A stretch of DNA of 64,000 nt from an uncultured delta proteobacterium. Its GTDB lineage: Bacteria > Desulfobacterota > Binatia > UBA9968. The DNA lies in NCBI GenBank assembly GCA_963745035.1, contig CAVUVW010000014.1:704001-768000 (forward strand), read 5' to 3'. Below, piece by piece: positions 13,651-58,942 of the stretch. The position numbers and the translations under genes are program-made. A model generated the notes under the pieces. The model was not told the DNA's origin. It did not search any database and saw only the letters and a list, made by a program, of their open reading frames with translations. The number at the start of each line of letters is the position of its first letter. Within the stretch, counting starts at the first letter, position 1.

Positions 13651-13705
13651 TCTACCCCCAAGGAGGTAATAGGCACGCGCCAACGCGCATCAGTACCGAT
13701 TTTCG

Positions 13706-14885: not shown

Positions 14886-15681
14886 TTACGGCTGGTTGAA
14901 CTTCGGTGCGCGCTTCTCGACAAAAGCGCGGTAACCTTCCTGAAAATCCGCCGACTGCATCAGGCGGGCTTGCTCGGCGGCTTCCAGATCCAGAGCCTGG
15001 AGCAAATCCATGTCGGCTTCGCGATCGAGGAGGTCTTTGGTAATGCCCAACGCTTGAAGCGGTCCGTTTTTGAGCTTGCGCGCGAGGGCGTAACATTCAT
15101 CGATCAGCTTGTCGTGCGGCAAAACGCGGTTGGCGAGACCGATGCGCAGGCACTCCGCCGCATCGATTGTGTCCCCGGTAAAGAGCAGCTCCGCGGCCCG
15201 GCCTTGGCCGACGATCCGAGGCAATAAGTAACAAGCGCCCATGTCCGCCCCGGACAGACCGACCTTGGCGAAGAGAAAAGCGAACTTGGCGCGATCGGAA
15301 AGAATGCGGATATCGCTCGCGAGCGCGAGCATCGCGCCCGCGCCCGCGGCGATGCCGTTGACCGCCGCGATGATCGGTTTTTTGAGACTGCGCATGTTCC
15401 TCACGACATCGCAGGTCAGCCGGGTAAAGCGCTGCTGTTCTTCGGGGTTCATCGCGATCAATTTACCGATGATCTCGTGGACGCTGCCGCCGGAGCAAAA
15501 ACCCTTGCCGGTGCCGGTGAGCACGATTACTTTAGCCGCGGAATCGTTCGCCAGCACCGCGAAAACCCGTTCCAATTCGGCGTAGGTCTCGAACGTAAGC
15601 GCATTCAAACGATCCGGATCATTGAGCCGAATCGTCGCGACGCCGTCGCTCAACCTCATAAATGAAACTCCGATAGTCCAT
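14886..15681 (-). CDS. Enoyl-CoA hydratase / isomerase (one frameshift near the start)
   Basis: Motifs RLNALTFETY, FCSGG, AAVNGIAAGAG, GLSGADMGA and AFVEKRAP. Confidence 0.9.
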
Positions 15682-15723
15682 TATCAAACTTTTCGCCGCA
15701 CCGTTCGAACGCTGCGACTTAGA

Positions 15724-15756
15724 TCACTCCAACACTCCAGTAATACATTACTCCAT
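15724..15756. repeat. Short intergenic repeat with an ACTCCA core
   Basis: CACTCCAA-CACTCCAG..TACTCCA. Confidence 0.5.
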
Positions 15757-15761
15757 TCGGA

Positions 15762-16544
15762 TCATGCCATCACCGCCCCGCCGTCGACGTGGACTGCCTG
15801 ACCGGTCATACCGGCGAGTTTTTCAGAGGCAATCAGCAGTGCAAGCGACGCTACTTCGTCGGTTCCAATCAAACGATTCTGCGGCGCGCTGGCGGCAAAT
15901 AATTTGATGATATCTGCAACACTCTTGGCGGTTTTCGCCGCCATGATCTTGGCGTTCTCGTAGGTGCGCTCGTCGTCGATATAGCCCGGACAAACCGCAT
16001 TGACGGTAATGCCATCGCGCGCGGTCTCCAAGCGCCAGCGCACGCGTAAGCCCTAACAGCCCATGCTTCGAGGCGGTGTACGCGGTCGCATGGCGGTAGC
16101 CGACTTTCGCTGCGGTCGATGCGATGTTGATGATCCTTCCCCATTTTGCTTGCACCATCGCCGGCAAGAAGACTTTGCAGCAATTGTAAGCGCCGGTCAG
16201 GTTTACTGCCAAAGTCTCGTCCCAAAGATCGTCCGGCATGTCAGAAAAGCTTACAGCCCGGGCGATACCGGCGTTGTTGATGAGAATCTGCACATCGCCC
16301 CAGCGCGCTTTTATCTCTTCGCCGAGACTCCGCACTTGATCTCGGCGAGAGATATCATACGGCAAGGCAAGCACCTGCGCGCCGTTTTCACCTATCTTTT
16401 CAGCCGCGGCGTCGAGTCTGTTTCGGTCGCGCGCGGTGATCACGACCCGGCTGTTCTGCCCGGGCAAACGCCTCGGCGAGCGCTTGCACCGAGACCGCCG
16501 CTCCCCCCGGTGATCAGCACAATTTTGTGCCGCAGATCGATCAT
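15762..16544 (-). CDS. SDR family oxidoreductase (frameshifted)
   Basis: Motifs MIDLRHKIVLITGGSGGLG, NNAGI, YTASKHG, VNAVCPGYID and VDGG. Confidence 0.88.
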
Positions 16545-22340: not shown

Positions 22341-23051
22341 TTAGATACCGGCCATGAGACCGGCCAGTGCCGTTTTTGCGACGTTATGATCCCAGACCTT
22401 TTGCACGACGGAATCTTTGCGCCGCTGCTTCATCACCCGTTGCGTTTCGTCTTCGTTGTAGACCATGACCGGACCGAGCAACGAAGCTTTGTAGAATCGC
22501 GAAGCGGCTTCCTCCAAATCGACACATCCGGCGAATACCCATTCTATAGAGTGAGCCACAACCATCGAACCATGGCCGCGTAGCATGACGGCATCTGCCT
22601 TGCCCAAAGCTTTTGCCACGGCGTCACCCTGCTCGATCGTGTGGATCAGCGCCGGATCCATGTATTTGGGCAACGGGCCCGGGCCGAAAAAGGCGCCGGG
22701 ATTGGAAGATGCCGGATAGAACGGTTTATCAACCATCGAGAGGGTCGCGACCATGTGATTATGCAAATGCGCAACGCTTTGAATATCGCTGCGCGCTTTG
22801 TACGCCCGCGCGTGCATATTGACCTCGGAAGGCGCCTTGTAATTGCCCTCGATCAGCTTGCCTTCGAAATCGGTAATCACCATATCATCCGGCTTCACCG
22901 TGGCGCGGCTTACAGGATGGGGCAAAATAACAAGATGATCCGAACCGGGAATACGCGCGCTGATATGCCCGCTGTAATCCACCAATCCGGCGTTGAACAA
23001 CATGCGCGATGACATGGCGAGTTTCGTTTTAAGCTCTCCTAATTCAGACAA
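22341..23051 (-). CDS. Class II aldolase / adducin family protein
   Basis: TTG follows GGAGGAG; motifs GHISAR, PSEVNMH, HLH and LRGHG. Confidence 0.88.
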   Translation of the reverse strand: MSELGELKTKLAMSSRMLFNAGLVDYSGHISARIPGSDHLVILPHPVSRATVKPDDMVITDFEGKLIEGNYKAPSEVNMHARAYKARSDIQSVAHLHNHMVATLSMVDKPFYPASSNPGAFFGPGPLPKYMDPALIHTIEQGDAVAKALGKADAVMLRGHGSMVVAHSIEWVFAGCVDLEEAASRFYKASLLGPVMVYNEDETQRVMKQRRKDSVVQKVWDHNVAKTALAGLMAGI

Positions 23052-23172
23052 GATCGTGCTCCTCCCTAACCAACGAGTTTTTTGTGCTATATCTTCCATT
23101 GAAGCTTAGTTCAACCGCTCGCATCCTGGAGGGCACAGATCTCGCGCCTCTAGGGAAGGAAAGCCGTTCAAG

Positions 23173-46241: not shown

Positions 46242-47225
46242 CTAGACCGAAGCGAGCAAGCCGCGCTGCACCAGATCTTGGGCCATTTTCACCTTGTAAA
46301 TATTGTCTTTGAGTGGCTTGGCACCCTCGAGCGCGATTTCGCCCGCCTGTACTGCCACGGCCTCATCGAGCTTTTTGCCACGCAAGAATTCTTCCGATTT
46401 TCGCGCGCGCCACGGTATCGGCGCGACGCCGCCGAGCACCACCCGTGCATCGCGCACTACACCTCCGGAGCTTTCGACCACGGTTGCTACCGCGACGATC
46501 GCGTGATCCCACGCCAAGCGTTCGCGCACTTTGTGGTAAAAGCCCTTGCTACCGGGCTTGGGCGTCGGCACGTAAATCTCGGTGACCACCTCGCTGGGAT
46601 TCAGAATATTCTCGCGCTTGTAATCAACCGACGGCAGGACGAAAAACTTTTCCAGCGGAACCGTCTTTTCGTCCGCCGGGCCGGCGACTTTGATTTGCGC
46701 GCCCAGCGCAACCAGTGCCGGCGCGGTATCCGAAGGATGGACAATGAAACTCGGACCACCACCAAGGATAGCGTGGAAACGGCCGTCGCCGGTGACTGTA
46801 TAGCAAACCTGCCCGCCTTTGCGCAGGCAGTTGAAGTTCGAGGAGCGAAAGTACCAACAAAACGGCCGCTGGCAAATATTGCCGGCGATGGTGCCGGCAT
46901 TGCGAATCTGCGGCGATGCCGCGACCCCGGCGGCATCGGAAAGAATAAGCAGCTTTTCCCGGATCGCCGGATGTTCTTCGATGTCGGCGAGCTTGGCCAA
47001 TGCACCGATGCGAAAACCGCCGCGTTCTTCTTTGATAGAATCCAGACCGGGGATAGTTTTTAGGTTAATGAGATAGTCGGGCTCTACGACATGATCTTTC
47101 ATGAGCTGCAGATATTCGCTGCCGCCGCCGACCACCGCCGCGCTTTTCTTTTGCTGCTGAAATTTTTGCAGCAGGCCAATTGCTTCCTTGACGCTTTTCA
47201 CATCGATATTTTCGAACTTATTCAT
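46242..47225 (-). CDS. Xanthine dehydrogenase family FAD-binding subunit (PaoB-like)
   Basis: Motifs VGGGSE, ASPQIRNAGTIAGN, HPSD and LGGVAPIPWR, plus the Cys insert CWYFR..CLRKGG..C. Confidence 0.9.
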   Translation of the reverse strand: MNKFENIDVKSVKEAIGLLQKFQQQKKSAAVVGGGSEYLQLMKDHVVEPDYLINLKTIPGLDSIKEERGGFRIGALAKLADIEEHPAIREKLLILSDAAGVAASPQIRNAGTIAGNICQRPFCWYFRSSNFNCLRKGGQVCYTVTGDGRFHAILGGGPSFIVHPSDTAPALVALGAQIKVAGPADEKTVPLEKFFVLPSVDYKRENILNPSEVVTEIYVPTPKPGSKGFYHKVRERLAWDHAIVAVATVVESSGGVVRDARVVLGGVAPIPWRARKSEEFLRGKKLDEAVAVQAGEIALEGAKPLKDNIYKVKMAQDLVQRGLLASV

Positions 47226-47244
47226 GGGCGCTCCCTTCTCCGTC

Positions 47245-49458
47245 CTAGACGCGAGTCGCGCGAACGATTTTGTCCGGCGTGATCGGCAGTTCTTTGAAGC
47301 GTTTGCCGGTGGCGTTGAAAATGGCATTGGCGATCGTCGCCACCGCCGGCGTGATCGGCGGCTCGCCGACCACTTTTCCGCCGAAAGGACCGTAGGAGTC
47401 ATAATGCTCGATGAAAATAACCTCGATCTCAGGTGATTCCAGATGGGTCGGCACTTTGGCATCACGGTAATTGGGATTGACCGGGATGGCAGTCAACCGG
47501 TCGATGATCAGCTCCTCCGAGAAAGCCATGCCGATGCCCTGCACCACCCCGCCTTTGATTTGGCTTTCCGCCGGCAGGCGATTGATGATCGTGCCGGAAT
47601 CGTGCGCCGCTACGTAGCGTGTGATCGCTACATGCCCCGTCCAGGTGTCGACTTCGACTTCGGCGAAGTGCGCCGCGAAGCTCTTGCCCTCGACGTCTTT
47701 GAACGAGGGATTTGTTGTCGCCCGGCCGATCAGTTCGCCGGCCCGCGCGACCACCCGCGCCAGCGGCAGTTTTTGCCCCGGTGTAGCGCGCACAAAAACT
47801 TCGCTGTCGCGTAAATCCAACTCTTCGGGCTTCACTTTCAGTTGCGGCGCGGCGATATTGAAGATTTGCCGGCGCACATCTTCGGCGGCGGCGATCACCG
47901 CCGGCCCGGTGAACGGCGTTGTGCGGCTGCCGGATTCGCCGACAGAATAAGGTGTCACGTCGGTATCGCCGTTAGTCACCTGAATTTGGCTCAGCGGAAT
48001 CCCCAGCGCCTCCGCCGCGATGATCGCCATCGTCGATTTCGCACCGGTGCCGATATCGGTGACGCCGACGAGAACATGAGCGGTGCCGTCGGGGTTCAGG
48101 CGGATCGTCGCCGCGCCCAGACCGGGGCGAAACGGATAGCCGCCCAACGCCATGCCGATGCCGTGCTTTTTCACTCCGCCCATGGCGCCGGGCTTGTGCC
48201 ACTTCTCGCTCCAGCCGATGCGCTTGGCTCCTTCCGTGATGCACTCCTCCAGATGATTCGAGGTGAATGGCGTTTTGCTTTTGTATTTCTGAATCCGGTT
48301 GCGCATGAACATGTCGACTGGATTGATCTCCATCTCATGCGCGATGTGATCCAGGAACGAAGCGAAACCGAACACCGACTGAGGATAGGCCGGCGCGCGA
48401 TAGTTGGCGCCGACCACGGTATTGGTGTGCACGGGCTTGATGTGTTTTCTGAAGTTGGGGATCTGATAAAAGTCGGTGCCGCTCAAGTTGCCGCTCTGCT
48501 TGCGGTACGCGCCCATGTTGGTGACCGCGTCCAGCGATACCGCGGTAATCGTGCCGTCTTTCTTCACGCCGATCTTGTAGTGCTGCTCGGAGGACCAACG
48601 CCCATGCATGCCGATGTAGTCGTCTTCCCGGGTAAATTCGACTTTCACCGGCTGGGCCGCAACCTTGGCGAGCATGGCGGCCATATAGTCATAGTCCTGA
48701 GCTTGATTTTTGTTGCCGAAGCCGCCGCCCATGTATTTGCACACCACGCGTACCTTGCTCAGCGGCAAGTTAAAATCTTTAGCGATGTCGGTGCGCGCGT
48801 TCGAAACGCCTTGGGTCGAGGCGTAAACGGTCAGTTTACCCGCGTCCCATTTGGCGATGCTCACACGCCGCTCGAGTTGGGCGTTGTTCACATGCTTCGT
48901 GATATAAGTATCTTCGAAAACCCGATCCGCTTCCTTAAAACCTTGGTCCACGTCGCCCCAGATCTCCTCGATAGGCGCGCTAAAATTGCCTTTGCCCACC
49001 GAAAGATTGCCGCTCGGGTTGATCTTTGGCGCATCCGGTTTGAGCGCCTCGTTGGCGTCGAGCACATGGGGCAGCTTCTCGTACTTCACCTCGATCAGCT
49101 TGAGCGCGTCTTCGGCAATATGGCGGTCCGTCGCCGCCACCGCCGCCACCGGATCGCCGACGTAGCGCACTGGGTTATTGAAGATGAACCGCTGATGCGT
49201 GTGACCGCCGCTTGACCAGGGAATTTGTGCGTTGCCGTGATGAATGATCGCTCTCACTCCCGGCAGCTTCTCCGCCTTCGAGACATCGATGCTGACAATC
49301 TTGGCGTGCGGCACCGTGCTGCGCAAAACCCGCGCATAGAGCATGCCGGGAAGCTGGATGTCGCCGGTGTACTGCGCCTGGCCGGTCACTCGTTCGTAGC
49401 CATCGATGCGGGTGATTCTCTTGCCGACAACGGAAAACTCTTTCGATGCTTGTGCCAT
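47245..49458 (-). CDS. Xanthine dehydrogenase family Mo-binding subunit (PaoC-like)
   Basis: Motifs VTGQAQYTGD, MGGGFGNK, YRAP, DIGTG, QIKGGVVQG and KVVGEP. Confidence 0.92.
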   Translation of the reverse strand: MAQASKEFSVVGKRITRIDGYERVTGQAQYTGDIQLPGMLYARVLRSTVPHAKIVSIDVSKAEKLPGVRAIIHHGNAQIPWSSGGHTHQRFIFNNPVRYVGDPVAAVAATDRHIAEDALKLIEVKYEKLPHVLDANEALKPDAPKINPSGNLSVGKGNFSAPIEEIWGDVDQGFKEADRVFEDTYITKHVNNAQLERRVSIAKWDAGKLTVYASTQGVSNARTDIAKDFNLPLSKVRVVCKYMGGGFGNKNQAQDYDYMAAMLAKVAAQPVKVEFTREDDYIGMHGRWSSEQHYKIGVKKDGTITAVSLDAVTNMGAYRKQSGNLSGTDFYQIPNFRKHIKPVHTNTVVGANYRAPAYPQSVFGFASFLDHIAHEMEINPVDMFMRNRIQKYKSKTPFTSNHLEECITEGAKRIGWSEKWHKPGAMGGVKKHGIGMALGGYPFRPGLGAATIRLNPDGTAHVLVGVTDIGTGAKSTMAIIAAEALGIPLSQIQVTNGDTDVTPYSVGESGSRTTPFTGPAVIAAAEDVRRQIFNIAAPQLKVKPEELDLRDSEVFVRATPGQKLPLARVVARAGELIGRATTNPSFKDVEGKSFAAHFAEVEVDTWTGHVAITRYVAAHDSGTIINRLPAESQIKGGVVQGIGMAFSEELIIDRLTAIPVNPNYRDAKVPTHLESPEIEVIFIEHYDSYGPFGGKVVGEPPITPAVATIANAIFNATGKRFKELPITPDKIVRATRV

Positions 49459-49469
49459 AGAGACCTCCC

Positions 49470-50087
49470 TTAGCGGCTCTTTGCGGCCGCGAGCACGGCT
49501 GCAACTTCGCGGTTATAATTGCCGCAGCGGCAGAGATTACCGGATAAGCCGCGGCGCACCTGCGCTTCGTTGGGCTTGGGATTCTTAAGCAGCAACGCCT
49601 TTCCCGACATGATCTGACCCGAGGTGCAAAAACCGCATTGCGGCCCGTCATGCTCGATGAAAGCTTCCTGCACGGGGTCGAGTTTTTCCCCTTTGGCAAG
49701 TCCCTCAATGGTGAGAATATCCTTGCCCTGCATCCATACCGCTAGTTGGCTGCAGGAATACATGTTGCGACTGTCGATGATCACCGTGCAAGCGCCGCAC
49801 TCGCCGCGGTCGCAGCCAATCTTGGTGCCGGTGAGCTGCAGCTGATCGCGCAACACTTCGGCAAGCGTGCTGCGGTGCTCGACCTCCACGCGGTACGTCT
49901 TGCCGTTCACTTTGAGTGCGATCGGCGTCTTGCCCCGGCTCGTGCCGACCGATTCCGCGGAGTACGCCTCGGCCGAATCGGTCTTGGTGAGCCCCGTTGA
50001 AACCACCGCGGTGCCGATCGCGCCCCCGCCCAGCCCTTTCAGAAACGAGCGCCGGGAGAGCTTGTTACTTTTATTTTCCTCTTCCAT
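49470..50087 (-). CDS. 2Fe-2S subunit with Tat signal (PaoA-like)
   Basis: Motifs SRRSFLK, GCDRGECGACT, QCGFCT and NLCRCG. Confidence 0.92.
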   Translation of the reverse strand: MEEENKSNKLSRRSFLKGLGGGAIGTAVVSTGLTKTDSAEAYSAESVGTSRGKTPIALKVNGKTYRVEVEHRSTLAEVLRDQLQLTGTKIGCDRGECGACTVIIDSRNMYSCSQLAVWMQGKDILTIEGLAKGEKLDPVQEAFIEHDGPQCGFCTSGQIMSGKALLLKNPKPNEAQVRRGLSGNLCRCGNYNREVAAVLAAAKSR

Positions 50088-50226: not shown

Positions 50227-51114
50227 ATGGCTGAAAAATCACTGTGCTCCGAGGGTGCCGAGCTCGAGGACGTGCTCGATGAGCTCCAACGCGAGCATCG
50301 AGTCGAAGAAATATCCGGCTGGGACTCCGGCTTTATAAATCTCAATCGTGCCCTGGATGGTATCCGATCTGGCCTCTACCTGCTTATCGGCCCTCCCGGC
50401 ATCGGCAAGACCTCTTTCGCCAGGCAATTGCTCGATCAAATCGCGGAGCGAAATCGCGTCCCGGCAATATTCTTTAGCTTCGTCGAATCGAAAAAGGAGC
50501 TGAGAATAAAAACTTTGGCGCGCTTGAGCGGCCTGGATAACCGTGAGATCCGCCGGGGCAGTGCCTATGTTCTTCATTGGTACGGTGTGCCGCGTTTGGG
50601 TGGCACCGAAGCCGCAGAGTTGCCGCCGAGTTGGGAGAAGCTCAAACGAATGGCCGAAGAAGCGAAAGGCTGGCTCGATTCGGTTTACCTGATTGAATGC
50701 GAACGGAACACGAGCGTGGAGCAAATCGACGCCCAGGTCCGCGAGATATCCGGCGGCGAGCCTCCTTTGGTCGTGATCGACGACTGCCAGCGGCTCGGTT
50801 CTGCCGATCAAGCGGAGGATGCCCGCTTACTTATGGTCGTCGAACAACTGCAGACGCTGGCAAGGAGTTGCAAAACGCCGCTGTTTGCCACCTGGCCGGA
50901 CCTGGATGGAAACGCCGGCTTGGCCGGACGATGGAGCGAAAGAATTCCCGATGCGGACGGTATTTTGGTCATGCAGACGGATCCGGCGCGTACCCAAAAG
51001 CTCATCGAGCCGAATCAGGCGATCGTTGTCCACATCGTGAAAAACCGCGGCGGTGAAAAATGCAAGCTGGCTTTCGACTTTTTTCCCAGCTTCTCGCGCT
51101 TCCAAGAGGCGTAG
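50227..51114 (+). CDS. Stand-alone DnaB-like C-terminal (RecA-fold) ATPase
   Basis: Motifs SGFINLNRALDG, Walker A GPPGIGKT, Walker B VVIDD and KNRGG; no DnaB N-terminal domain. Confidence 0.8.
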   Translation: MAEKSLCSEGAELEDVLDELQREHRVEEISGWDSGFINLNRALDGIRSGLYLLIGPPGIGKTSFARQLLDQIAERNRVPAIFFSFVESKKELRIKTLARLSGLDNREIRRGSAYVLHWYGVPRLGGTEAAELPPSWEKLKRMAEEAKGWLDSVYLIECERNTSVEQIDAQVREISGGEPPLVVIDDCQRLGSADQAEDARLLMVVEQLQTLARSCKTPLFATWPDLDGNAGLAGRWSERIPDADGILVMQTDPARTQKLIEPNQAIVVHIVKNRGGEKCKLAFDFFPSFSRFQEA

Positions 51115-51867
51115 CTACCACCGCCCTTGCCAGCGATAGCAAAGAATTTGCGCGGGTTTGTCTTTGGTCACGAGCGCGGCCTCGTAGCCGTCGCGCAGAG
51201 CCAATTCTTCGAGCGTCCAACCAGCTACCGACGCTTGGATGCGCACCTTGCCGTCGGCGAGCGCAATTTCCACCTCGTCCAATTGCCCCGCCAGACCCGT
51301 GCCCTTGGCCTTTAAGAACGCCTCTTTGCTGGTCCAACATTTATAAAAGGCCTGGCGCCGCAGCGCCGCGGGCAGGGCACGCAACGCCGCCACCTCGCGT
51401 TTGGTAAAAAAGCGGTTCGCGACCGCGAAAATCTCAAAATCGGATTTGACATATTCGATGTCGACGCCGATTTCATGCCGATCGTTCACCGCCACCAGCG
51501 CGGTTTCGTGAGAATGGGATAGATTGAAATCGATGCCGCAAGCGCTAAACTGCGCCGCCAACTTGGGCTTGCCGTTGGCGCCTTCGTTGAATTGCAAATC
51601 GGCCGCGCCCGTATGCGTGTAGCGCGCCAAGATGTCGCGCAACGCGGCATGCGCGATCACGTAGCGCCGCTGATCTCTCGCGAACTTGAATTTCTCGGCT
51701 CGCGCCTGTTCGTCGGGCAAAAGCCGCTCGCGGCAAAAACCGACGTCACATCCGGGATCGTCCAGCTCCACTGCCCAGACATGCGCGTCGCCGCCGAGCG
51801 GCGGAAGCGGATCAGGCGCTGACAACCACCGGCTCATGGATGACTCGCGGAGCCTTTGCCTGGCCAT
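51115..51867 (-). CDS. 4'-phosphopantetheinyl transferase (Sfp type)
   Basis: Motifs GKPKL, FNLSHS, IGVDIE and WTSKEAFLKAKGTG. Confidence 0.93.
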   Translation of the reverse strand: MARQRLRESSMSRWLSAPDPLPPLGGDAHVWAVELDDPGCDVGFCRERLLPDEQARAEKFKFARDQRRYVIAHAALRDILARYTHTGAADLQFNEGANGKPKLAAQFSACGIDFNLSHSHETALVAVNDRHEIGVDIEYVKSDFEIFAVANRFFTKREVAALRALPAALRRQAFYKCWTSKEAFLKAKGTGLAGQLDEVEIALADGKVRIQASVAGWTLEELALRDGYEAALVTKDKPAQILCYRWQGRW

Positions 51868-52219
51868 GCAGTGCGCTATCGAATTTGCGCATATGAGCCG
51901 CGCTCATCAGACGACGGCCTCGCCGCGCAACGCCCGCGACGATGACCCGCTCGCCGTTGCGCGTAATCCGCAGATCGCATCGGCCGGAGAAGAAAATCAT
52001 CGTGCGCGGATGCTCGTAGACCGTGGTTTTGTGCGGCACCTCCTCGACGTAGATATCAAAGAGGCGGCCGGCCGGCAGATTGACGGTCCGGGTATGCATG
52101 AGATCGCCTTCGAAGAAAACTTCGAGCCAATTGCGATTCTCCGTCACAGCGAGGATAATTCCGGCGGCGTTCTTGATTTCCGCGATCAGTTCTTCGCCAC
52201 CGGCTGCTTCCCGTGCCAT
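51812..52219 (-). CDS. Hypothetical beta-rich protein
   Basis: ATG follows AAGGA, 12 nt after the ligase stop; no recognisable family; the 3' end is uncertain. Confidence 0.6.
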   Translation of the reverse strand: MAREAAGGEELIAEIKNAAGIILAVTENRNWLEVFFEGDLMHTRTVNLPAGRLFDIYVEEVPHKTTVYEHPRTMIFFSGRCDLRITRNGERVIVAGVARRGRRLMSAAHMRKFDSALHGQAKAPRVIHEPVVVSA

Positions 52220-52231
52220 GAGTGTCCTTGG

Positions 52232-53762
52232 CTAATTCGCCAGCAACGTCTCCGCGTCGCGAATGGTTTTTCCCGATGAGGTGCGCGGCAGCGCGTCGCG
52301 CACGACGATGCGATCCGGCACCTTGAAATTGGCGAGATTGGCGCGCAGAAACGTCAACAGTTCTTTTTCGTTGACGGCCGCTCCCGGGCGCGGCACCACT
52401 GCAGCGCCGATGACTTGGCCGCGCTTGGCGTCGGGGATGGCAAACACCACCGTCTCCTGCACGCCCGGATAAGTGTAAATCAGGTTTTCCACTTCCGCCG
52501 GATAGACGTTGAGGCCTCCGGTAATAATCATGTCGTCGCGCCGCCCCAAATGATAGTAATAGCCGTCGGCGCCGCGCTTGCCGACGTCGCCGGTGTAAAG
52601 CCAGCCGTCGCGAACGCGCTCGGCGGTCGCCTCGGGCCGGCGAAAGTAGCCTTTCATGACGTGCGGGCCGCGTGTGATGATTTCGCCGGGTTCGTCGTCG
52701 CCGACTTCTTTGCCCCTTTCATCGACGATTTTCACCTCTACGCCCGGAACCGCGCGGCCGATGCTGCCCATTTTCGCCTCGGCTTTGGCCGGCTCGACCA
52801 AGGTAATCATCGGCGAGGTCTCGGTGAGGCCGTAGCCTTGAATGACTCGGATATGCGGCTGCGCGGCTTGAAACGCGCGCAGCAGCGGCAGCGGTATGCT
52901 GGTCCCCATCATCGCGGCGATCTTCACGCTGCTCGTGTCATAGCTCGCGAGATTCTTTACGCCCAGCAAAAGTTGAAAGACGATCGGCACGCTCTCGAAT
53001 ACGTTCACGCGATATTTTTGAATGCCTTCCAGGAGCGTGATCGGGTTGATCTGATCAAAGATCACCAGCGTGTAGCCCTTTTCGGCGAGCTCGTTGCAGA
53101 CGATCGGACCGACGATGTGCGACATCGGCAAAATGCAGCCGCGCATGGTCGACCCGTCGCTGACGCCCATCTCGGTCATCACGCGCGGGTACTGAGCGAG
53201 ATTGCGATACGACAACACCACGCCCTTTGGTTCGCCGGTGGTGCCCGAGGTGTAGAGAATCAGCGCGTCGTCATCGTCATGCAAGCGCGGCGGCGAAACC
53301 TGCGCCGCCGGCACAGCAAATCGCTTTTCGAAGCTTTGCTCCCCGTCCCCATTGACGATCCATACAGGGATCGCGCCCGTCGCTTGAAATATTTCCTCGA
53401 CCTCCGGATACAACTGACTGTGAACGATCAGAAGCTTCAGGTCGGCGTCTTGCAAAACGCCCTCCAGCTCCTTGCCCTTCAGCCGCGCATCGAGAATGAC
53501 GGTAACGGCGCCAAGCTTTTGGCTGGAGTAATAGCTCAGCGGAATGGCGGTGGAATTGGGCAGCAAGACTCCCACGCGGTCACCCTGGCGAAATTCCTTC
53601 CTGCTGCAGGTGTGCCGCCAAAGCATGCACGCGCTGATTGAGCGCCGCGAAGGTCAATTCTTCCTCTTTCGCGATGAGCGCAGTTTTTTGCGGCTGCCGC
53701 GCGGCCGTCTTCGCCAACACCTCGGCTGCGAAAAATCCTATCGAACCGGTATCGTTTGCCAT
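52232..53762 (-). CDS. Acyl-CoA synthetase / AMP-binding enzyme (one frameshift near 53590)
   Basis: Motifs LYTSGTTGEPKG, QGYGLTETSP, YTGDVG, GRRDDMIITGG and PRTSSGK; the N-terminus lies in ORF 53580-53894. Confidence 0.9.
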
Positions 53763-54729
53763 ATCGCAAAAGCCCTCTGAAACGGTTTGTACCAGCGCGA
53801 CAGCTGCGCCAGCTCGCCGCGCTGGAGTTTTAGTTTTCCCTGCTGGGTCGCCAGAAATGCGTCGATCCGGTTGCTGAACACCGCGTTCCACCACTCGGCT
53901 TTGCCGCGATCATGAACTCGCCGCCGTCGCCTTGGGCGAGATCCGCGATCTCGCCGTCGAGAAATCTCACCGTCCATGCTTCTCCGGTCTCGTCGAGCGA
54001 AAGCGTCAACGATGTCGTGAGCCCGGTTTCGGCGCCATGGCTGCGGAACTCCGAATCCCGGTTTGCGCCGTCGACCAATGCCTGCATGTGCTCTTTGGAA
54101 AAAAGCGCATAGCGCTCGCCGCCAACAGAAGACATCGACGGTTCCGGGCGCGCGCCGTTAGCCGCGGCCGTAGCACCGACTCGCTCTTTAAAGAATTGGC
54201 AGTGCACGGCCTCTTCGAGCAGATCGGTGAACAGAAACGCTTCTTGAAAACTCTTGCCGATGGCGACGGTGCCGTGACCTTTGATGATCACCACCGGATG
54301 ATATTTCAGCTCTTCGACGACTTTCTCGGGCTTGGTCACCGTCGGCGTGTCTTGTGCGATGATCGGCACTTCGCCGATAGTGTACTTTTCTTCGAAGCTC
54401 ACCGGCACAAAACTCTCGTGGCCGAGGGAGAACGCCAGAACCATGGGCGGATGGACGTGAACGATCGCCGCAGCCTCAGTGCCGGCATAGACCGCCATGT
54501 GCATCGGCGTTTCGCTGGAGGCGCGCTGATTTTTTTTGATCGGCTTGCCGGCGTGATCGATCCGCACCACATCTTCGGCGGTGAGAAAGCCGAGCGGCGC
54601 GTGCTGCCCGGTGATCAGAAAATCGTTCTTGCCGGCGCGGCAGCTCAGGTTGCCGCCCCAACCGCTGATCAGCCGGCGCTCGAAAAGCCGCCGCCCCCAA
54701 TTGACCATTTCGCGCTCGAGTTTGGTCAT
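53738..54729 (-). CDS. Class II aldolase fused to an SCP2 sterol-carrier-like domain (one frameshift near 53900)
   Basis: Aldolase motifs GGNLS, SSETPMH, HVHP and KGHG. The C-terminus reads LFSKEH..ANRDSEF..WNAVFSNRIDAFLATQQGKLKLQRG. Confidence 0.75.
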
Positions 54730-54735
54730 TGTTCG

Positions 54736-56260
54736 TTAGTTCTTTAGGAAGGCCCAGGGAACAACTTCCGTAGCGATGCGGAAAACATCGGCGCCCGCCG
54801 GACAGAGCTTTCGTCCCAGGAAAGTTCCAGCGTCGCGGTCACGCGTTGGTCCGCGTTCTGCTGCAGCGCTGAACATCTCGACTTCGACGCCGTGGATACG
54901 CGCCAAGCGCACCGCCAATTGCGAGCCACAAATACCTCTCGGCCCTTCTTCGGTCAACGTGTCGTAGAACAAGCAGAGCTTCTTGATCTCGCGCTGCGCG
55001 AATAACGTTCCCATCATGTTGTCGGAAACCAAGGTCACCGCCACGCGCCGCTCGATCAGTTCCGGCACCACAACTTCACTTCCCCAGAGTTCCGGGCGCA
55101 TCTCGGGAATCAACACGCTTTCGGCCTGTTCCGCTTTGAGCGCGCTGGCGAGGAAGGCATACTGGTTTTTTGGCGGCACGCCGTAGACCAGCAAATACTT
55201 GCCGCCGCGCTCTCGCTCGCGCTCCGGCTCCGAACTTTGCTTTTGGTACTTCCGCCGAAAACTTTCCGGCGTGTAAATCTCATCGAAGCCGATGAGCCGG
55301 GTAATCAGCGCCGCCGGGGTCATGTCGAACGCCGGGTAGCGCACCTGCAACATGCCATTGTTCGATCGGACCAACGACTCGCCCTGAAACTTGAGCAATT
55401 CCGCTCCCGGCCTTTCCTCGATCGCCACGTCCGCGCCGCGCTCAAGCGAGCGCGGGTCCTGCACGAGAGCGTAGAAGGGAATGGCAAAATCCTTGGCCAT
55501 CAAAGCCAAAGGATAGGTGCCGACTTTATTGATGATATCGCCGTTTTGCGCCGCACGGTCGGCGCCGACGATTACCGCGTTCACCGCGCCCTGCTGCATG
55601 ACTTGCGCCACAGCGTTGTCCGGGATGATCGACACGGCCACGCCGGCTTGGGCAAGCTCCCAGGCGGTCAGGCGCGTGCCCTGAAGATACGGCCGGGTTT
55701 CGCTCGCGATCACGGAAAACTTTTTCCCCAGCTCTGCGCAGCGCTGCGCCACCGCAACCAATTCACCGCTGACGTTGCAATGGGTCAGCACGCGCGCTGG
55801 ATCAGGCAGCGCGTCAGCCGCGAGTCGGGCGCGCGCGATCCGCCCGCCGACGATCCGCTGGCCGAGCTCCCTCGCCTGCTTGGCGATCGATTCTCCGGCG
55901 ATCACTGCCCGGCGGCAATTCGTCCAAGCCATGTGTCGAAAAAAGCTCCGAGACCGCGAAAATCAAAGGTCGGCCGCGCGGCGCAAAACTGCTCGGTCAT
56001 TTCCGCCAGACGCCGGCGCAGCGTCCGCGGCGTTCTTGTCGGGCGTGCTCGTTGCAGCCAGCGAGCGCGCCGCTGTAAAGAAACGTCAGCACCTGTCCGA
56101 AGGCGCGGGTTTTCATCGCGCGCACCGCGTCGAGCGCCTGCTCGACCTCGCGCACTTCCAGGTACTCGATTTTTTCCGGAATCTGGGTCTCGTCGAGAAT
56201 GCGAAAACCGGCGCCTTGCCAGAGAACCGGCTCGAACAGCGGACTTTGCGCGGCGCTCAT
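54736..56260 (-). CDS. MtnA-like methylthioribose-1-phosphate isomerase with an extra eIF2B-like domain (frameshifted)
   Basis: Motifs ILDETQIP, RPT, LTHCN, ETRPYLQGTRLTAWEL, VGADR..NGDIINKVGT and PAFDMTP, then a second EMRPELWG..TLVSDNMMG unit. Confidence 0.82.
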
Positions 56261-56281
56261 GGTCGCTCCGGCTCAGGTATC

Positions 56282-57017
56282 CTAAAGATAGTGCAGCGCC
56301 TTGCGCGCCACTTCGATGGTCTTCTTCTCGGCTTCGAAGAATTGCGGATCGCGAAAGCCGAACTTGCCGTGCAAACACTCGTCGGACACCGCGAGCACCG
56401 CGCCGGCCTTTTTGCCGCGCACCTGCGCGATCGTCAGAAACGTCGAAGTTACCATGTCGATGCTTGAAATGTTTTGCTCGCTGAGCTGGCCGAATCAGCT
56501 CTGGGGTTTCCTGGAACAGCGCGTCGGTCGTGAAGATCCAGCCAAGATGATAGCGCACTCTCAAGCTGTCAGCGGCTTTCTTGAGGGCATCGACAATCTC
56601 GCCGTGCGCTACGGTGGAAAAATTCTCCGCCACGTAGTAGCGCGACGTGCCGTCGCCGCGCAGCGCACCGGTGACGATCACGAGATCGCCGATCTTGACG
56701 TTTTCCTGGAGCGAGCCGCAGCTGCCGACGCGAATGAGCGCCTGCGCCCCGGCGCCGCAGAGGATTTCCGTCGTGATCGCGGTGTCGGGCGCGTAGCGCC
56801 CGCCGTTGCCGACGGTGACGCGCTTGCCGTCGAGCGCGCCGCTGTGCATCTCGTAGTCGAGAAAGGTAAAATTTTTCTGCGGCGAGTCGAGCAGCTTGAG
56901 CAGCATTTCGCTCCGCTCTCTCGGACCGGGAATCAGCGCGTAGGGACCGAGCGAATCGGCTTTGAGGCCGAGCATGGACAGCATCCGCTGCGGCGTGAAA
57001 TGAGCTTCTTTGAGCAT
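56282..57017 (-). CDS. Nucleoside phosphorylase, Udp/DeoD (PNP_UDP_1) family (one frameshift near 56495)
   Basis: Motifs ALIPG, IRVGSCGSLQ, GDLVI..ALRGDGTSRYY, TTDALF and LAVSD; ends ALHYL at 56282. Confidence 0.85.
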
Positions 57018-57019
57018 AA

Positions 57020-58238
57020 TCAAAGCGCCCGGTGGGTAAACGCCAGCAGATCCTCGAACGGCAAAGCCGCGTCCTTGAGATCGGCGAAGGCGCGCTCGCA
57101 GAGCGCGCTCGACGTGAGCACCAGCTCCGCGCCGCTGGCGACGGCTTCGCGCATCCGGTCCGCGGCGCTCCATTGCGCCAGCTCGGGGTCGGCCTCGGGC
57201 ACTCCGCCGCCGCCGCCGCAGCACCACGACCAGCGCCGGTTCCGCTCCATCTCGACCAGTTGAACGCCGGGAATCGCGCGCAGGATACTGCGCGGATCGT
57301 CAAACACGCCGGCGCCCCGCCCGAGATGGCAGGAGTCGTGATAGACGACCTTTTTTTCGATGCGCCGGGAAAATTTTAATCGGCCCGATTGAATCGCTTG
57401 GTTGACGTACTGCACGCCGTGCAGCGCGGTAAAGTTCGCGCCGCCGGTCTCTGGCGTACTCGCGCCAGATTCTCTGACAGCTGCCGCACGCGGTGACGAC
57501 TGTGGTGATGCCGGCTTTGGCGATGATCGCCAGATTGGCGTCTTTGAGCCGCTCGTACTCGCGGCGAAAGCCGAGATCGAAGGCGTAAAGCCCGCAGCAC
57601 TTCTCCTCGTCCCCGAGAATTACGAAATCCTCTCCGGCTTTTTGCATGATGCCGGCGAGCGCGCGGGCCGCGCTCCGGCCGCTGACGCGGTCCGCCGCGC
57701 ACCCCGCAAAGAGCAAGGTGGGCGCGCTTGTGTCGCGCAGCTTTTTGAGCCCGAGATCACCGGCCCAGGCGCCGCGCCCTTCCTGTGCCTCCGCCCAAGG
57801 ATTATCATGCGCGCGCAAGCCGTCGTAAATCGCGCGGTGCGCTTCGATGGGACCTTCCTTCTCGGTAATTTCCTCGCGCATCGCGACCGTGATGTCCCAC
57901 GGTCCGTAGCCGTCGCCGCGCACGCCGCAAAGCTCCTGGCACATGAGACAGTTGGTGCAGCCGTAGATCACTTCTTTGAGCTCGGGAGTAATCGAATCGA
58001 GCCCATGGAAAACCCGCTGCGCCATCAGCCAGCGCGACTTCGGCGTGTGTCGTTGAAAGCGATAAAACTCGTAGGGCGGACACTTCTCTTTGGGCCCGGG
58101 CGCATCTTCCATCGGATTGGCCGGACCATGCCCGTAGCAAGAGCCGCAGAGAACGCAGCCGCTGCTGCGTTCTTCCAGGCCCTTGGCATAGAGCCATTTT
58201 TCTACGCGCCGAAGGCCGACGGGGAAATCACTTTTCAT
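57020..58238 (-). CDS. 4Fe-4S dicluster and CCG-domain oxidoreductase (HdrD/GlpC-like; one frameshift)
   Basis: Motifs CVLCGSC..CP, CTNCLMCQELC, FAGC, CCG, TACGSC, YHDSCHLGR and CCGGGGG. Confidence 0.88.
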
Positions 58239-58364
58239 GAAATTGACCGTGGGCGAAATCGTTAATGCCTTAACCTTTATAGCTCGCAGCTCATGAGTGT
58301 CAACCAATTCCCGGACAGAGGGATCGAAGGCAAACGACGCGCCACAGAGAACGGCGCTGCCGCA

Positions 58365-58817
58365 CTACTTTGGAGTCGCTTCGGGATTGAGCTTGCGCAG
58401 CAGAGCGGAAAGCTCCTTCTGTTGCGCACCGTCGAGCGCGGTAAAGATTTCCGACACACTTTTCTCGAACAGCGGCAGGGTCGACTTGTAGAGCTTGGCG
58501 CCTTTGTCCGTGAGCACGACGTGCACCACGCGGCGGTCATGCTCGTCGCGTTTGCGCAGCACCAGTTTCTTTTCTTCCAGCCGATCGACGATCCCGGTCA
58601 AGTTGCTCACCGTAACCATCATCTTGGCACCGATATCGCCGAATGGCAGGCCACCAGCGTAGCCGATGGTGGCGAGCACGTAAAATTGCGGCGGCGTGAG
58701 CCCGGCCTTCTGCAAATCGTTGTCCAGTTTTTTGTGGGATTGCAGGCTGAAGCGCAGAAATCGAACCCATAGACTGGTAGTATAAGCGGTGAAGAATGGA
58801 CGTGTATCGCCGCGCAT
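58365..58817 (-). CDS. MarR family transcriptional regulator
   Basis: Motifs GLTPPQFYVL, NLTGIVDRLEEKKLV.R and DRRVVHVVLTDKG. Confidence 0.92.
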   Translation of the reverse strand: MRGDTRPFFTAYTTSLWVRFLRFSLQSHKKLDNDLQKAGLTPPQFYVLATIGYAGGLPFGDIGAKMMVTVSNLTGIVDRLEEKKLVLRKRDEHDRRVVHVVLTDKGAKLYKSTLPLFEKSVSEIFTALDGAQQKELSALLRKLNPEATPK

Positions 58818-58942
58818 TCGGCCAATGTATGCGCCCGCGCTGTTAAAAGCAACTTCGCGCGGCGATTCTGCGTAACCGCATGCATACGGCGCGCGGCGGC
58901 AGCGGCGATGATTCTGCAAGCACGCTCGGAAGGAACCAAGCG

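Follow-up and report, generated by a model that had tools for sequence, protein, structure and literature searches.

The window, a stretch of 64,000 nt from the genome of an uncultured member of the Binatia (G000), carries eight genes at positions 51115-58919, all on the minus strand in a Pfam scan. From high to low coordinates they encode a MarR regulator, a CCG/4Fe-4S protein, a nucleoside phosphorylase, a long MtnA-type isomerase, a class II aldolase fused to an SCP2 domain, a FadD-type acyl-CoA ligase, a small orphan protein and a PPTase. Neighbouring genes overlap or lie only 6-21 nt apart, and the co-oriented, tightly spaced run that a sequence-only reading of this DNA had described is real. 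The start of the ligase gene overlaps the stop of the aldolase gene by 25 nt in the window; in 31 of 34 Binatia loci the overlap is 24 nt. This overlap and the aldolase-SCP2 fusion bear out the earlier proposal that the phosphorylase, isomerase and aldolase are wired to SCP2 and a ligase.

The window copy has at least seven frameshifts, two in the isomerase gene and one each in the genes for the CCG protein, phosphorylase, aldolase, ligase and orphan protein. The orthologues of these broken genes are intact. The sequence-only reading had advised polishing the sequence. At the sites shown, contigs built from the short reads of three studies carry the restored frame, so the frameshifts are assembly errors. 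In DNA reads from three of three runs, one base is added at 53903 in the aldolase gene and one is dropped at 53589/53591 in the ligase gene.

Conservation of the cluster, which the sequence-only reading had proposed to check, extends through the Binatia. Across 39 species loci, counting only contigs that reach far enough, we found marR in 31/32, the CCG gene in 31/34, the phosphorylase in 37/37, the isomerase in 36/37, the aldolase in 35/36 and the ligase in 33/34. Gene order is kept across about 35 Binatia species loci, and the cluster is present in 23 of the 24 genomes of the window's genus. Such an arrangement is far beyond chance.

Core enzymes of the cluster

The phosphorylase (56282-57017, frameshift near 56489) has 245 aa in orthologues and is of the hexameric type (NP-I), an intact orthologue scoring 119 bits with Pfam PNP_UDP_1. 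Among NCBIfam models it scores best with the uridine and DeoD-type phosphorylases (138 bits for uridine phosphorylase against a cut-off of 280), and in the PDB it matches uridine phosphorylase 3qpb (E 1e-25) and S. solfataricus MTAP 1jds (E 6e-23). These comparisons describe a generic UP/DeoD-like enzyme and gave no mark of a lipid pocket. Only two PNP_UDP_1 genes occur in the genome, and the one in the cluster is the sole non-MTAP member.

The isomerase (54736-56260, frameshifts near 56010 and 55906) is a Pfam IF-2B/MtnA protein of 505 aa in orthologues. In its C-terminal 160 aa the protein repeats its own Rossmann half in degenerate form (hhalign of extension against core, 95% probability, E 2.4e-8). 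It passes the cut-off of NCBIfam eIF-2B_rel (196.5 bits against 185.85) and falls under that of salvage_mtnA (236 against 279). Its Cys and Asp align with those of B. subtilis MtnA, and a 7-residue loop following the catalytic Cys is missing. Long MtnA proteins of this kind form 387 clusters in public data. Canonical MtnP and MtnA are encoded elsewhere in the window's genome, so the cluster enzymes constitute a second, diverged set, the two isomerases being 30% identical.

The aldolase-SCP2 protein (53738-54729, frameshift near 53900) has 330-333 aa in orthologues and scores 134 bits with Pfam Aldolase_II. It is of the metal-dependent class II type, with a Glu and three His invariant in 21/21 and 19/19 sequences. 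Pfam does not detect the SCP2 tail in the window's open reading frame; it is encoded in another frame (53741-53902) and matches T. thermophilus SCP2 (2cx7/1wfr, E 2e-4). Pfam SCP2 is found in 19/19 Binatia orthologue tails with a best E of 2.6e-5, below the gathering score, and exceeds that score in 13 of 18 distant relatives of the fusion. At 50% identity the fusion comprises at least 18 clusters, mutually 26-46% identical, and is old. The ligase (52232-53762, AMP-binding and AMP-binding_C, frameshift near 53590) has 509 aa in orthologues. Its score with NCBIfam PRK06187 is 383.6 bits against 476, and it matches 8wev/8weu (E 2e-82) and FadD13 (E 2e-68) in the PDB.

Accessory genes

The MarR gene (58365-58919) scores 57.8 bits with Pfam MarR and 82% in tblastn against an orthologue. 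Its true start is probably later than that of the listed open reading frame, as the orthologue alignment spans 58374-58802. A 40% MarR homologue lies upstream of the aldolase-SCP2/ligase pair in two distant loci.

The CCG protein (57020-58307, Pfam CCG and Fer4_8, frameshift near 57450), of 403-413 aa in intact orthologues, combines a 4Fe-4S dicluster with two CCG domains, the architecture of GlcF/GlpC/HdrD/TfrB. Its best NCBIfam match is TfrB, at 134.6 bits against a cut-off of 385. The gene is absent from Binatia family f2 and from 78 of 80 distant metagenome loci. Near the cluster, on the same strand, a three-subunit Mo-hydroxylase of the xanthine dehydrogenase/aldehyde oxidoreductase family (46242-50087) comprises a 2Fe-2S subunit with a TAT-like leader, a MoCo subunit and an FAD subunit. 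All NCBIfam scores are below cut-off (XdhA 536.6 against 780, PaoC 395 against 1180, PaoA 179.9 against 322), and the enzyme adjoins the cluster in 9 of 22 Binatia loci. It is a possible, unproven stand-in for the absent aldehyde dehydrogenase (ALDH). The Mo enzyme, like the CCG protein, is confined to Binatia.

The small orphan gene (51812-52219), extended in the window by a frameshift near 51927, has no match in Pfam, NCBIfam or PDB. Its product has a conserved core of about 95 aa with 25 invariant columns across 14 sequences; its relatives form 784 clusters, none named, and the gene occurs in 18 of 30 Binatia loci and 0 of 80 distant ones. The Sfp/HetI-type PPTase (51115-51867, Pfam ACPS/AASDHPPT_N; HetI model 194.9 bits against 370) is encoded in 20 of 27 Binatia loci at a varying distance from the cluster. 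No carrier-protein (PP-binding) domain was found on the window's 1.06-Mb contig C14: all 14 matches in the genome fall on C13 and C15, and megasynthase-size open frames contain at least six of them. An AcpS-type PPTase does sit within the operon in 7 of 49 distant loci. The link to a PPTase drawn by the sequence-only reading is weak, and the PPTase gene's membership of the operon is doubtful.

A wider operon family and its radical SAM partner

The core is found again, 30-45% identical, in 80 unrelated metagenome loci with a GC content of 31-55%. By tblastn, the isomerase is found in 50 of these, the phosphorylase in 34, the ligase in 31 and the SCP2 tail in 66. Neighbours were counted in the 49 loci that span 7 kb or more: ALDH in 35, a B12-binding radical SAM enzyme in 31, the phosphorylase in 29, the ligase in 23, an HAE3 RND transporter in 21, a LolA-like/DUF1329 protein in 20, DUF1302 in 18, a ketoacyl synthase in 9 and START in 7. 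The isomerase, ALDH, phosphorylase, ligase, HAE3, LolA-like and DUF1302 genes all lie on the aldolase strand, as do 35 of 37 radical SAM genes, and overlaps of 1-8 nt are frequent among co-directional genes. Five loci carry the aldolase-SCP2 gene with Zn-ADH and an LsrF-like gene and without phosphorylase or isomerase (L139, L141 and L154 fully, L093 and L113 in part). A ligase follows in L139, L141 and L154, and exporters are also present in L141 and L154. In these five loci the SCP2-aldolase cannot depend on a nucleoside made available by the operon.

The operon-linked radical SAM enzyme is BchE/HpnJ-like and B12-binding (202 and 156 bits, both under cut-offs), and is immediately upstream of the phosphorylase in 13 distant loci. 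Neither this partner nor the salvage of 5'-deoxyadenosine weighed below had been foreseen by the sequence-only reading. In Binatia the radical SAM gene is unlinked to the cluster and lies elsewhere in the genome; the window's genome has a full-length homologue at up to 42% identity (E 1.6e-147), all 29 matches falling in that family. In 38 of 41 relatives the radical SAM enzyme and the long MtnA are either both present or both absent, a figure that reflects few independent events among kin. The two are jointly missing from G018 of the same genus, from G027 and from 11/11 genomes of family f3; in G025 the radical SAM match is 43% identical with an in-frame stop.

A proposed route and its alternatives

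The cluster in the window is the Binatia form of an operon that is widespread and so far undescribed; its invariant core consists of a phosphorylase, an MtnA-type isomerase with an extra half-domain and a metal-dependent aldolase-SCP2. Our literature search found neither this operon nor a DHAP shunt with a ligase, ALDH, B12-binding radical SAM enzyme or lipid exporters. We tentatively favour, at a probability of roughly 45%, a route that starts from a radical SAM-derived 5'-substituted adenosine with a hydrophobic substituent. The B12-binding radical SAM enzyme would make a 5'-substituted 5'-deoxyadenosine. By homology, the phosphorylase would take off the base to leave a sugar 1-phosphate, the isomerase would convert this to a ketose 1-phosphate, and the aldolase would release DHAP and an aldehyde bearing C4, C5 and the 5' substituent. 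The aldehyde may then be oxidised, by the ALDH whose gene follows the aldolase in most lineages or, in Binatia, by the CCG Fe-S protein or the neighbouring Mo-hydroxylase as candidates. The ligase would form the CoA thioester, a possible ligand of MarR. Within this reading we take the substituent to be a lipid chain, so that the product released or built by the route would be a lipid longer by two ribose carbons. By joining the trio to a lipid-binding domain and a CoA ligase, the operon points to a so far undescribed connection of lipid metabolism with radical-SAM chemistry.

This proposal is supported by the domains and catalytic residues, the Binatia synteny, the old SCP2 fusion, the neighbours and shared strand at distant loci, the loci without phosphorylase and isomerase, the radical SAM co-occurrence and the status of the cluster enzymes as a second, diverged set beside canonical MtnP and MtnA. 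The sequence-only reading's hydrophobic substrate, with an aldehyde oxidised and then CoA-activated, fits the ALDH, FadD-type ligase and hydrophobe exporters of the distant loci. Counting against the proposed route are the unlinked radical SAM gene in Binatia, the lack of ALDH in the Binatia cluster, the absence of HAE3, LolA-like and DUF1302 homologues from the window's genome at E 1e-10, the sub-cut-off Binatia SCP2 tails, the generic phosphorylase and the few independent events behind the co-occurrence. Moreover, B12-binding radical SAM enzymes are known for methylation and rearrangement, in which 5'-deoxyadenosine is a by-product, and are not known to add adenosyl; this is done by HpnH and MqnE, neither of which belongs to the B12-binding class.

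That the class normally releases 5'-deoxyadenosine speaks for the main rival reading, which we consider possible but somewhat less likely than the proposed route: the radical SAM enzyme modifies a lipid and frees one 5'-deoxyadenosine per turnover, which the operon converts to adenine, DHAP and acetaldehyde, and ALDH and the ligase take the latter to acetyl-CoA. This would be a full DHAP shunt inside a lipid gene cluster, with 5'-deoxyadenosine cast as an inhibitor. The position of the radical SAM gene directly upstream of the phosphorylase in the 13 loci suits it. So does the window's genome, where we found no Pfs, no RLP, no MtnB over cut-off and no convincing ARD, making the cluster aldolase the best candidate for any DHAP shunt there. 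The chemistry of the trio is that of the published DHAP shunt/5-deoxyribose disposal, and Bacillus has paralogous sets beside its canonical methionine-salvage set, a pattern like that seen here (PMC6079011). Such salvage leaves unexplained the SCP2-aldolase fusion across 26-46% identity, its persistence at loci without radical SAM enzyme, phosphorylase and isomerase, a ligase that resembles FadD13 and feruloyl-CoA synthetase rather than acetyl-CoA synthetase, and the isomerase's divergence from canonical MtnA and missing loop.

Ordinary nucleoside catabolism, in which ribose 1-phosphate from the UP/DeoD-like phosphorylase passes through ribulose 1-phosphate to DHAP and glycolaldehyde, seems improbable. 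Such a route would amount to a shortened, bacterial form of the haloarchaeal non-carboxylating pentose bisphosphate pathway. We know of no MtnA-family enzyme that accepts ribose 1-phosphate; SCP2, the radical SAM enzyme, the lipid exporters and the FadD-type ligase would have no role, and the CCG protein and Mo enzyme are Binatia-only. In its favour are the best-scoring uridine and DeoD-type models, the status of the phosphorylase as sole non-MTAP gene, the failure to find the phosphopentomutase DeoB in the genome, the nearby GlcF-like protein and xanthine-dehydrogenase-family enzyme, and a documented FucA-like Ru1P aldolase (PMC9700705). We give little weight to a mosaic in which the trio forms a plain DHAP shunt and shares no pathway with its neighbours, the ligase, SCP2, PPTase and Fe-S protein. 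The PPTase, orphan gene, CCG protein and Mo enzyme are indeed lineage-restricted or variably spaced, and a carrier protein is absent nearby, but SCP2 is fused to the aldolase rather than just adjacent, the aldolase and ligase genes overlap in those 31 of 34 Binatia loci, and in 23 of 49 distant loci the aldolase strand also carries a ligase of the same family.

Adenosylhopane, the substrate suggested by the sequence-only reading, would be cleaved to a C32 hopanoid aldehyde or acid. The chemistry would suit the enzyme set, and the relatives come from soil-type metagenomes according to record titles and run labels. The sequence-only reading had proposed to check co-occurrence with shc/hpnH/hpnG. 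Neither HpnH nor Shc was found in the window's genome, judged in an assembly 92.6% complete, and among 41 relatives HpnH is over cut-off in one and Shc present in three, while the cluster is in 23 of 24 genus genomes. With the HpnG model, whose cut-off is 187, the phosphorylase reaches only 25.7 bits, and uptake genes are absent from the Binatia cluster. Adenosylhopane is thus very improbable, and as an endogenous substrate close to refuted.

Comparison with known systems

In the fluorometabolite route of Streptomyces cattleya the aldehyde is further oxidised to an acid. Unlike the operon, that route has no SCP2, ligase or exporter, and no locus map contains fluorinase or chlorinase genes. The Streptomyces route likewise leads from a 5'-modified adenosine to DHAP and a substituted acetaldehyde, 5'-fluoro-5'-deoxyadenosine giving fluoroacetaldehyde via phosphorylase, isomerase and aldolase (PMC6079011, PMC6302742). 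The haloarchaeal pathway also uses a FucA-like class II aldolase to split a nucleoside-derived ketopentose 1-phosphate into DHAP and an aldehyde, but passes through a kinase, R15P isomerase and RuBP phosphatase (PMC9700705); the NCBIfam Ru1P aldolase model gives only 61.6 bits against a cut-off of 300.

Hydrophobe transport sets of the HAE3 RND/DUF1329/DUF1302 type include AmeABCD of Castellaniella defragrans, for which a role in monoterpene efflux has been described. The same three families stand together in 18-21 of the 49 distant loci; they belong to the wider operon family rather than to the window. The hopanoid side-chain route follows the same logic, in which a radical SAM enzyme acts before a PNP-superfamily enzyme and the cluster also encodes an RND lipid exporter: HpnH adenosylates, HpnG removes the base and HpnN exports (PMC13459092). 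The operon differs in its BchE/HpnJ-like, B12-binding enzyme, in a genome lacking detectable HpnH and Shc, and in isomerase, aldolase, ALDH and ligase steps without hopanoid counterpart, the proposed route going on by retro-aldol cleavage.

With the DHAP shunt/5-deoxyribose disposal (MtnP or MtnN+MtnK, MtnA/DrdI, Ald2/DrdA) the cluster has in common three reaction types and protein superfamilies, clustered genes, and a paralogous set beside canonical MtnP/MtnA (PMC6079011). In that paper "CoA" is mentioned 0 times. The cluster departs from the shunt in a phosphorylase that is UP/DeoD-like rather than MtnP, in an isomerase 30% identical to the genome's MtnA with a duplicated half-domain and without the 7-residue loop, and in an SCP2-fused aldolase that matches DrdA 6btd only at E 5.5e-9. 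The cluster also has a ligase as partner, and in other phyla ALDH, a B12-binding radical SAM enzyme and lipid exporters as well.

The gene run and its frameshifts

The gene run under study occupies 51115-58919 of the minus strand of the window. Based on Pfam and NCBIfam, its eight genes encode a MarR protein, a 4Fe-4S/CCG protein, a PNP_UDP_1 phosphorylase, an IF-2B/MtnA isomerase, a class II aldolase, an AMP-binding ligase, the product of an ORF belonging to no family (the orphan protein) and an ACPS-type PPTase. When all three frames are read and intact orthologues are mapped onto the window, single-base frameshifts emerge in the CCG, phosphorylase, aldolase and ligase genes (one each) and in the isomerase gene (two); read data add one more in the small orphan ORF. 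The intact orthologues in related genomes are 407, 245, 505, 332 and 509 aa long, and the window pieces are 64-93% identical to them. The SCP2 tail, which the sequence-only reading had claimed for the aldolase, is real and lies at 53741-53902 in another frame than the aldolase body.

We compared reads with the window at the ligase, aldolase, orphan-ORF and isomerase sites. Contigs from three out of three independent DNA runs show a difference of exactly one base at 53589/53591 in the ligase gene and at 53903 in the aldolase gene, and the frame is restored. The same holds at the orphan-ORF site (51927) in two of the three runs, and one run carries five single-base differences across the isomerase zone. 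Outside the gene run, Pfam profile coordinates reveal split or N-terminally shortened ORFs for a TonB receptor, Lon and one acyl-CoA dehydrogenase, which we read as probable further frame errors. The CCG gene is also frameshifted in a relative's long-read assembly (L015). We rejected the idea that the interrupted genes are pseudogenes: their identity to orthologues is undiminished, probable frame errors occur elsewhere in the window and the reads restore the frame at the ligase, aldolase and orphan-ORF sites. The cluster genes are thus probably not dead, and we read the frameshifts as consensus errors of a long-read assembly.

The RNA run X17 yielded only short contigs over the genes (203-377 nt, 92-99% likeness), none of which bridges a gene pair by at least 31 nt. 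Promoter and terminator scans gave signals not above shuffles, and a search for a conserved operator palindrome found none.

Conservation within Binatia

The conservation on which the sequence-only reading would stand or fall is borne out, with gene order kept across about 35 Binatia species loci. Counts below cover 39 species-level loci, are relative to those whose contig extends far enough, and include one row from a genome flagged as unpublished (G005), on which none of our claims rests. The phosphorylase is present in 37 of 37 loci, the isomerase in 36 of 37, the aldolase in 35 of 36 and the ligase in 33 of 34. Similarly frequent are marR (31/32) and the CCG gene (31/34), and the SCP2 tail is detected in 32 of 36 loci, with a 33rd by alignment. 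The PPTase (20/27), the orphan gene (18/30) and a Mo-hydroxylase (9/22) complete the list. An overlap of 24 nt between the ligase start and the end of aldolase-SCP2 is kept in 31 of 34 loci. Within the genus, aldolase orthologues with the tail are found in 23 of 24 genomes.

A second Binatia family keeps marR-phosphorylase-isomerase-aldolase-ligase without CCG and PPTase, and the SCP2 tail is mostly missing; a third keeps only the phosphorylase and aldolase of the cluster. One Binatia locus (L068, 7259-8330) has an intact phosphorylase and an isomerase stub of the first ~100 residues, with the aldolase and ligase gone; this cluster is decayed. When genomes were drawn evenly from the phylum, the long isomerase turned up in 2 of 401, one of them the genome of the window.

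The window also encodes a stand-alone DnaB_C/KaiC-like P-loop ATPase of 295 aa (50227-51114). Its gene separates the PPTase from the Mo-hydroxylase, runs on the other strand and is found at the same position in 10 of 24 Binatia loci.

Core enzymes

None of the cluster proteins scores above an NCBIfam equivalog cut-off. The phosphorylase belongs to the hexameric type of PNP_UDP_1 and lies near both uridine phosphorylases and the S. solfataricus MTAP; of the NCBIfam models, uridine phosphorylase scores highest (138 bits vs a cut-off of 280). It is not of the MtnP type, and in this genome the MTAP model matches only a gene on another contig, C21.

The isomerase carries the motifs THCN and GADR, which match B. 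subtilis MtnA (2yrf) in alignment and are unchanged in five out of five sequences; their Cys and Asp are presumably the catalytic residues of an MtnA-type isomerase. The protein scores under the mtnA equivalog cut-off (236 vs 279 bits) and over that of the eIF-2B_rel subfamily (196.5 vs 185.85), is without the 7-residue loop after the Cys and shares 30% identity with the canonical MtnA of the same genome. Its C-terminal 160 aa repeat its own Rossmann half in degenerate form (hhalign probability 95%, E 2.4e-8). This long form comprises 387 clusters in public data, named, if at all, 'methylthioribose-1-phosphate isomerase' or 'hypothetical'.

All 21 aligned sequences share the aldolase residues E73, H91, H93 and H152, and the equivalent columns are invariant in 19 of 19 distant fusions. 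By assignment from FucA, we take this Glu and the three His to be the metal ligands of a class II aldolase. The nearest structure is a T. thermophilus 'fuculose-1-phosphate aldolase' (2fk5, E 3.5e-21); DrdA (6btd) is distant (E 5.5e-9) and no orthologue. The Binatia SCP2 tails score 12.6-15.1 bits against Pfam SCP2 (PF02036), below the gathering threshold of 21.3, and all 19 match SCP2 at E up to 10, the best at 2.6e-5. The tail profile matches a solved SCP2 structure (2cx7, E 2e-4) over positions 3-110 of 126. An 801-aa open frame around the aldolase of one relative (G040) was rejected as a high-GC artefact. A second class II aldolase in the window (22341-23099; 252 aa) has no tail; the genome gives 15 aldolase-family matches in total, this one among them. 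The ligase is nearest to feruloyl/fatty acyl-CoA synthetases and FadD13.

CCG protein, orphan protein and PPTase

The CCG protein combines a 4Fe-4S dicluster domain with two CCG domains, the architecture of GlcF/GlpC/HdrD, and stays below the equivalog cut-offs of TfrB (134.6 vs 385) and GlcF (26.9 vs 333). The cluster contains no flavoprotein or membrane partner for it. Together with the nearby Mo-hydroxylase, the CCG protein is a Binatia addition. Neither PDB nor Pfam yields a match for the orphan protein.

The sequence-only reading had made the PPTase part of the pathway. Pfam supports its Sfp/HetI fold (HetI model 194.9 vs 370), but no carrier protein is encoded nearby: the genome has three PPTase-domain genes, and its 14 PP-binding domains all lie on contigs other than the window's. 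We therefore rejected action on a local carrier protein, and the PPTase may well be a general one. Elsewhere in the genome (C11, 313936-315821) an AcpS-type PPTase gene sits directly upstream of canonical MtnA, probably by coincidence, though a PPTase is likewise close to the MtnA-type gene of the window and to those of 7 distant loci.

Genome context and adenosylhopane

The genome (completeness 92.6%) carries a canonical MTAP and a canonical MtnA outside the cluster, and two PNP_UDP_1 genes in all. The cluster is therefore a second, diverged set. The same pattern, a second set beside the canonical one, is described for 5-deoxyribose disposal clusters by Beaudoin et al. (PMC6079011). The canonical MTAP domain (240 positions) opens a 587-aa frame (C21, 311306-313069), either a fusion or a read-through from assembly error. 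Searches of the genome for Pfs, MtnB over cut-off, a convincing ARD, RuBisCO-like protein and DeoB found none.

Adenosylhopane, the speculative substrate of the sequence-only reading, finds no support here. HpnH and Shc have no match in this genome, their model cut-offs are exceeded in 1 and 3 of 41 relatives, respectively, and the HpnG model gives 25.7 bits on the phosphorylase (cut-off 187.1). Because HpnH and Shc are not found in the genome and are rare in relatives, we remove adenosylhopane as an endogenous substrate.

Two further gene groups of the window are recorded here. Beta-oxidation-type genes on the minus strand at 12499-16467 encode two acyl-CoA dehydrogenases (one shortened at the N-terminus, judging from Pfam coordinates), an enoyl-CoA hydratase and an SDR. 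A cobalamin salvage/uptake cluster at 695-12489, 40 kb from the gene run, holds a TonB-dependent receptor (two ORFs), a periplasmic binding protein, an ABC ATPase, CobQ, CbiZ, CbiB, a CobD-type aminotransferase, CobU and CobT; it is of interest solely because the presumed partner of the gene run, described below, is a B12-binding radical SAM enzyme.

Distant relatives of the operon

We searched 1.84 billion representatives with a profile of the SCP2 tail and obtained 85 proteins. At least 18 of these are aldolase-SCP2 fusions of 318-342 aa, sharing 26-46% identity with each other and with the Binatia protein; in 13 of the 18 distant fusions SCP2 scores over the Pfam threshold (21.8-34 bits). 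Two other architectures were rejected. P0339, a public protein of 694 aa joining B12-binding radical SAM, aldolase and SCP2, has both enzyme domains cut off at the joint; we treat it as a likely chimera that at most hints at adjacency. P0315, with a PD-(D/E)XK nuclease N-terminus before the SCP2 tail, is likely an assembly or gene-call chimera.

Aligning six non-Binatia fusions, we retrieved 80 metagenome loci with a GC content of 31-55%. With the Binatia orthologues as queries, the SCP2 tail is found in 66 of them and the isomerase in 50; 34 have the phosphorylase, 31 the ligase and 37 the C-terminal extension of the isomerase, separate or fused.

For the 49 loci that span 7 kb or more, we then grouped every neighbouring gene by clustering and annotated the cluster representatives. 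The most frequent is an aldehyde dehydrogenase (ALDH), mostly directly after the aldolase (35/49), followed by a B12-binding radical SAM enzyme that is BchE/HpnJ-like with scores under cut-offs (31/49), the phosphorylase (29/49) and a FadD-type ligase (23/49). An HAE3 RND transporter (21/49), a LolA-like/DUF1329 protein (20/49) and DUF1302 (18/49) are also common; SDR and Amidohydro_2 (10/49 each), ketoacyl synthase (9/49), START (7/49) and an AcpS-type PPTase between phosphorylase and isomerase (7/49) are rarer. All isomerase, ALDH, phosphorylase, ligase and transporter members, and 35 of 37 radical SAM genes, lie on the aldolase strand, many with 1-8-nt overlaps. A recurrent gene order is ligase, radical SAM, phosphorylase, MtnA, MtnA', aldolase-SCP2, ALDH, HAE3, LolA-like and DUF1302. 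Another type consists of Zn-ADH, an LsrF-like gene, aldolase-SCP2 and ligase, at times with marR upstream, without radical SAM, phosphorylase or MtnA; its ligase is the closest to the Binatia ligase (42-44%).

A presumed radical SAM partner in Binatia

On another contig, the genome of the window encodes a radical SAM enzyme that matches the operon-linked family over its full length (up to 42% identity, E 1.6e-147), and all 29 of its matches fall in that family. Among 41 relatives, 25 have both this radical SAM enzyme and the long isomerase, 13 have neither, and the two disagree in 3, which are incomplete genomes; the match in G025 is weak. The 13 joint absences comprise one genome of the same genus, one of the second family and all 11 of the third. 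Since the 41 genomes are kin, these counts represent few independent events.

The gene lies at 9559-11073 (minus) of the locus L157 (C13, 311000-330999), next to genes for a GlcD-like FAD protein and a TenA/haem-oxygenase-like protein. One idea is that this FAD protein might partner the GlcF-like CCG protein. About 4 kb away are a VTT/DedA protein, then BacA and a PMT-type glycosyltransferase; the VTT/DedA-type protein (46% identity, 5 matches) is the only one shared with the distant operons. Exporter homologues and a close ALDH were not found in the genome.

On the same contig (L158, 1896000-1912000), a class II aldolase of 242 aa neighbours a BNR/YCF48-like protein and two aldehyde:ferredoxin oxidoreductase fragments. 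An LsrF-like gene and a Zn-ADH there are 53-55% identical to the pair preceding aldolase-SCP2 in some distant loci.

Discussion

We derive the three core steps, phosphorolysis, isomerisation and aldol cleavage, from what is known about the enzyme families of the DHAP shunt, and all else from gene context. Two readings compete. On this basis we favour a substrate with a hydrophobic 5' substituent, with a probability of roughly 0.45, somewhat short of even. Our reasons are that the SCP2 fusion is ancient, that its partners are lipid-handling, that the isomerase is strongly diverged and that the SCP2-aldolase persists where nucleoside-making genes are absent. The operon could instead salvage 5'-deoxyadenosine, which would require no new chemistry and would agree with the known activities of B12-binding radical SAM enzymes; nevertheless, SCP2 and the FadD-type ligase would then be left without explanation, and we consider salvage the less likely of the two. 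Ordinary nucleoside catabolism via ribulose 1-phosphate competes less: it suits a UP/DeoD-like phosphorylase and the absent DeoB, and PMC9700705 provides a haloarchaeal precedent, but the lipid context would be wholly unexplained.

If the substituent is hydrophobic, the radical SAM enzyme would attach a lipid to the 5'-deoxyadenosyl radical. The adduct would then undergo phosphorolysis, isomerisation and, through the SCP2-tethered aldolase, retro-aldol cleavage, which would release adenine, DHAP and a lipid aldehyde longer by two ribose carbons. The aldehyde would be oxidised and CoA-activated, and in many phyla the product may be exported by the HAE3/LolA-like/DUF1302 system. Such a lipid pathway, widespread and so far undescribed, would take carbon and not a methyl group from SAM, and this carbon-donating role in lipid metabolism would be categorically new; we regard it as rather unlikely as it stands.

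A literature search, with subscription journals outside its reach, found no published description of this gene set; what it brought up on the transporter families was confined to papers on such transporter sets. In the accessible text of a 2026 review of lipid-modifying radical SAM enzymes (PMC13459092), 'phosphorylase' is mentioned for HpnG only. Were the hydrophobic reading true, this would be the second known case, after hopanoids, of the adenosyl part of SAM being built into a lipid, and the first with most of the ribose recovered as DHAP. It would also give a function to unannotated families from soil and other metagenomes: the 387 long-MtnA clusters, 784 orphan-protein clusters and at least 18 deep aldolase-SCP2 branches. 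Were salvage true, bacteria would place a full line from 5'-deoxyadenosine to acetyl-CoA inside radical-SAM lipid clusters, and the DHAP shunt would gain two steps. Either way, the operon opens to experiment a B12-binding radical SAM family that is uncharacterised, and likewise the metabolism of Binatia, which the collections used hold solely as metagenome-assembled genomes.

Two known systems were compared with the cluster. Of the hopanoid HpnH/HpnG system, HpnH and Shc were not found in this genome, and the phosphorylase scores below the HpnG cut-off. Relative to the DHAP shunt (Drd), the cluster has a PNP_UDP_1 phosphorylase that is not of the MtnP type, an isomerase with the aligned Cys and Asp and an aldolase with the Glu and three His.
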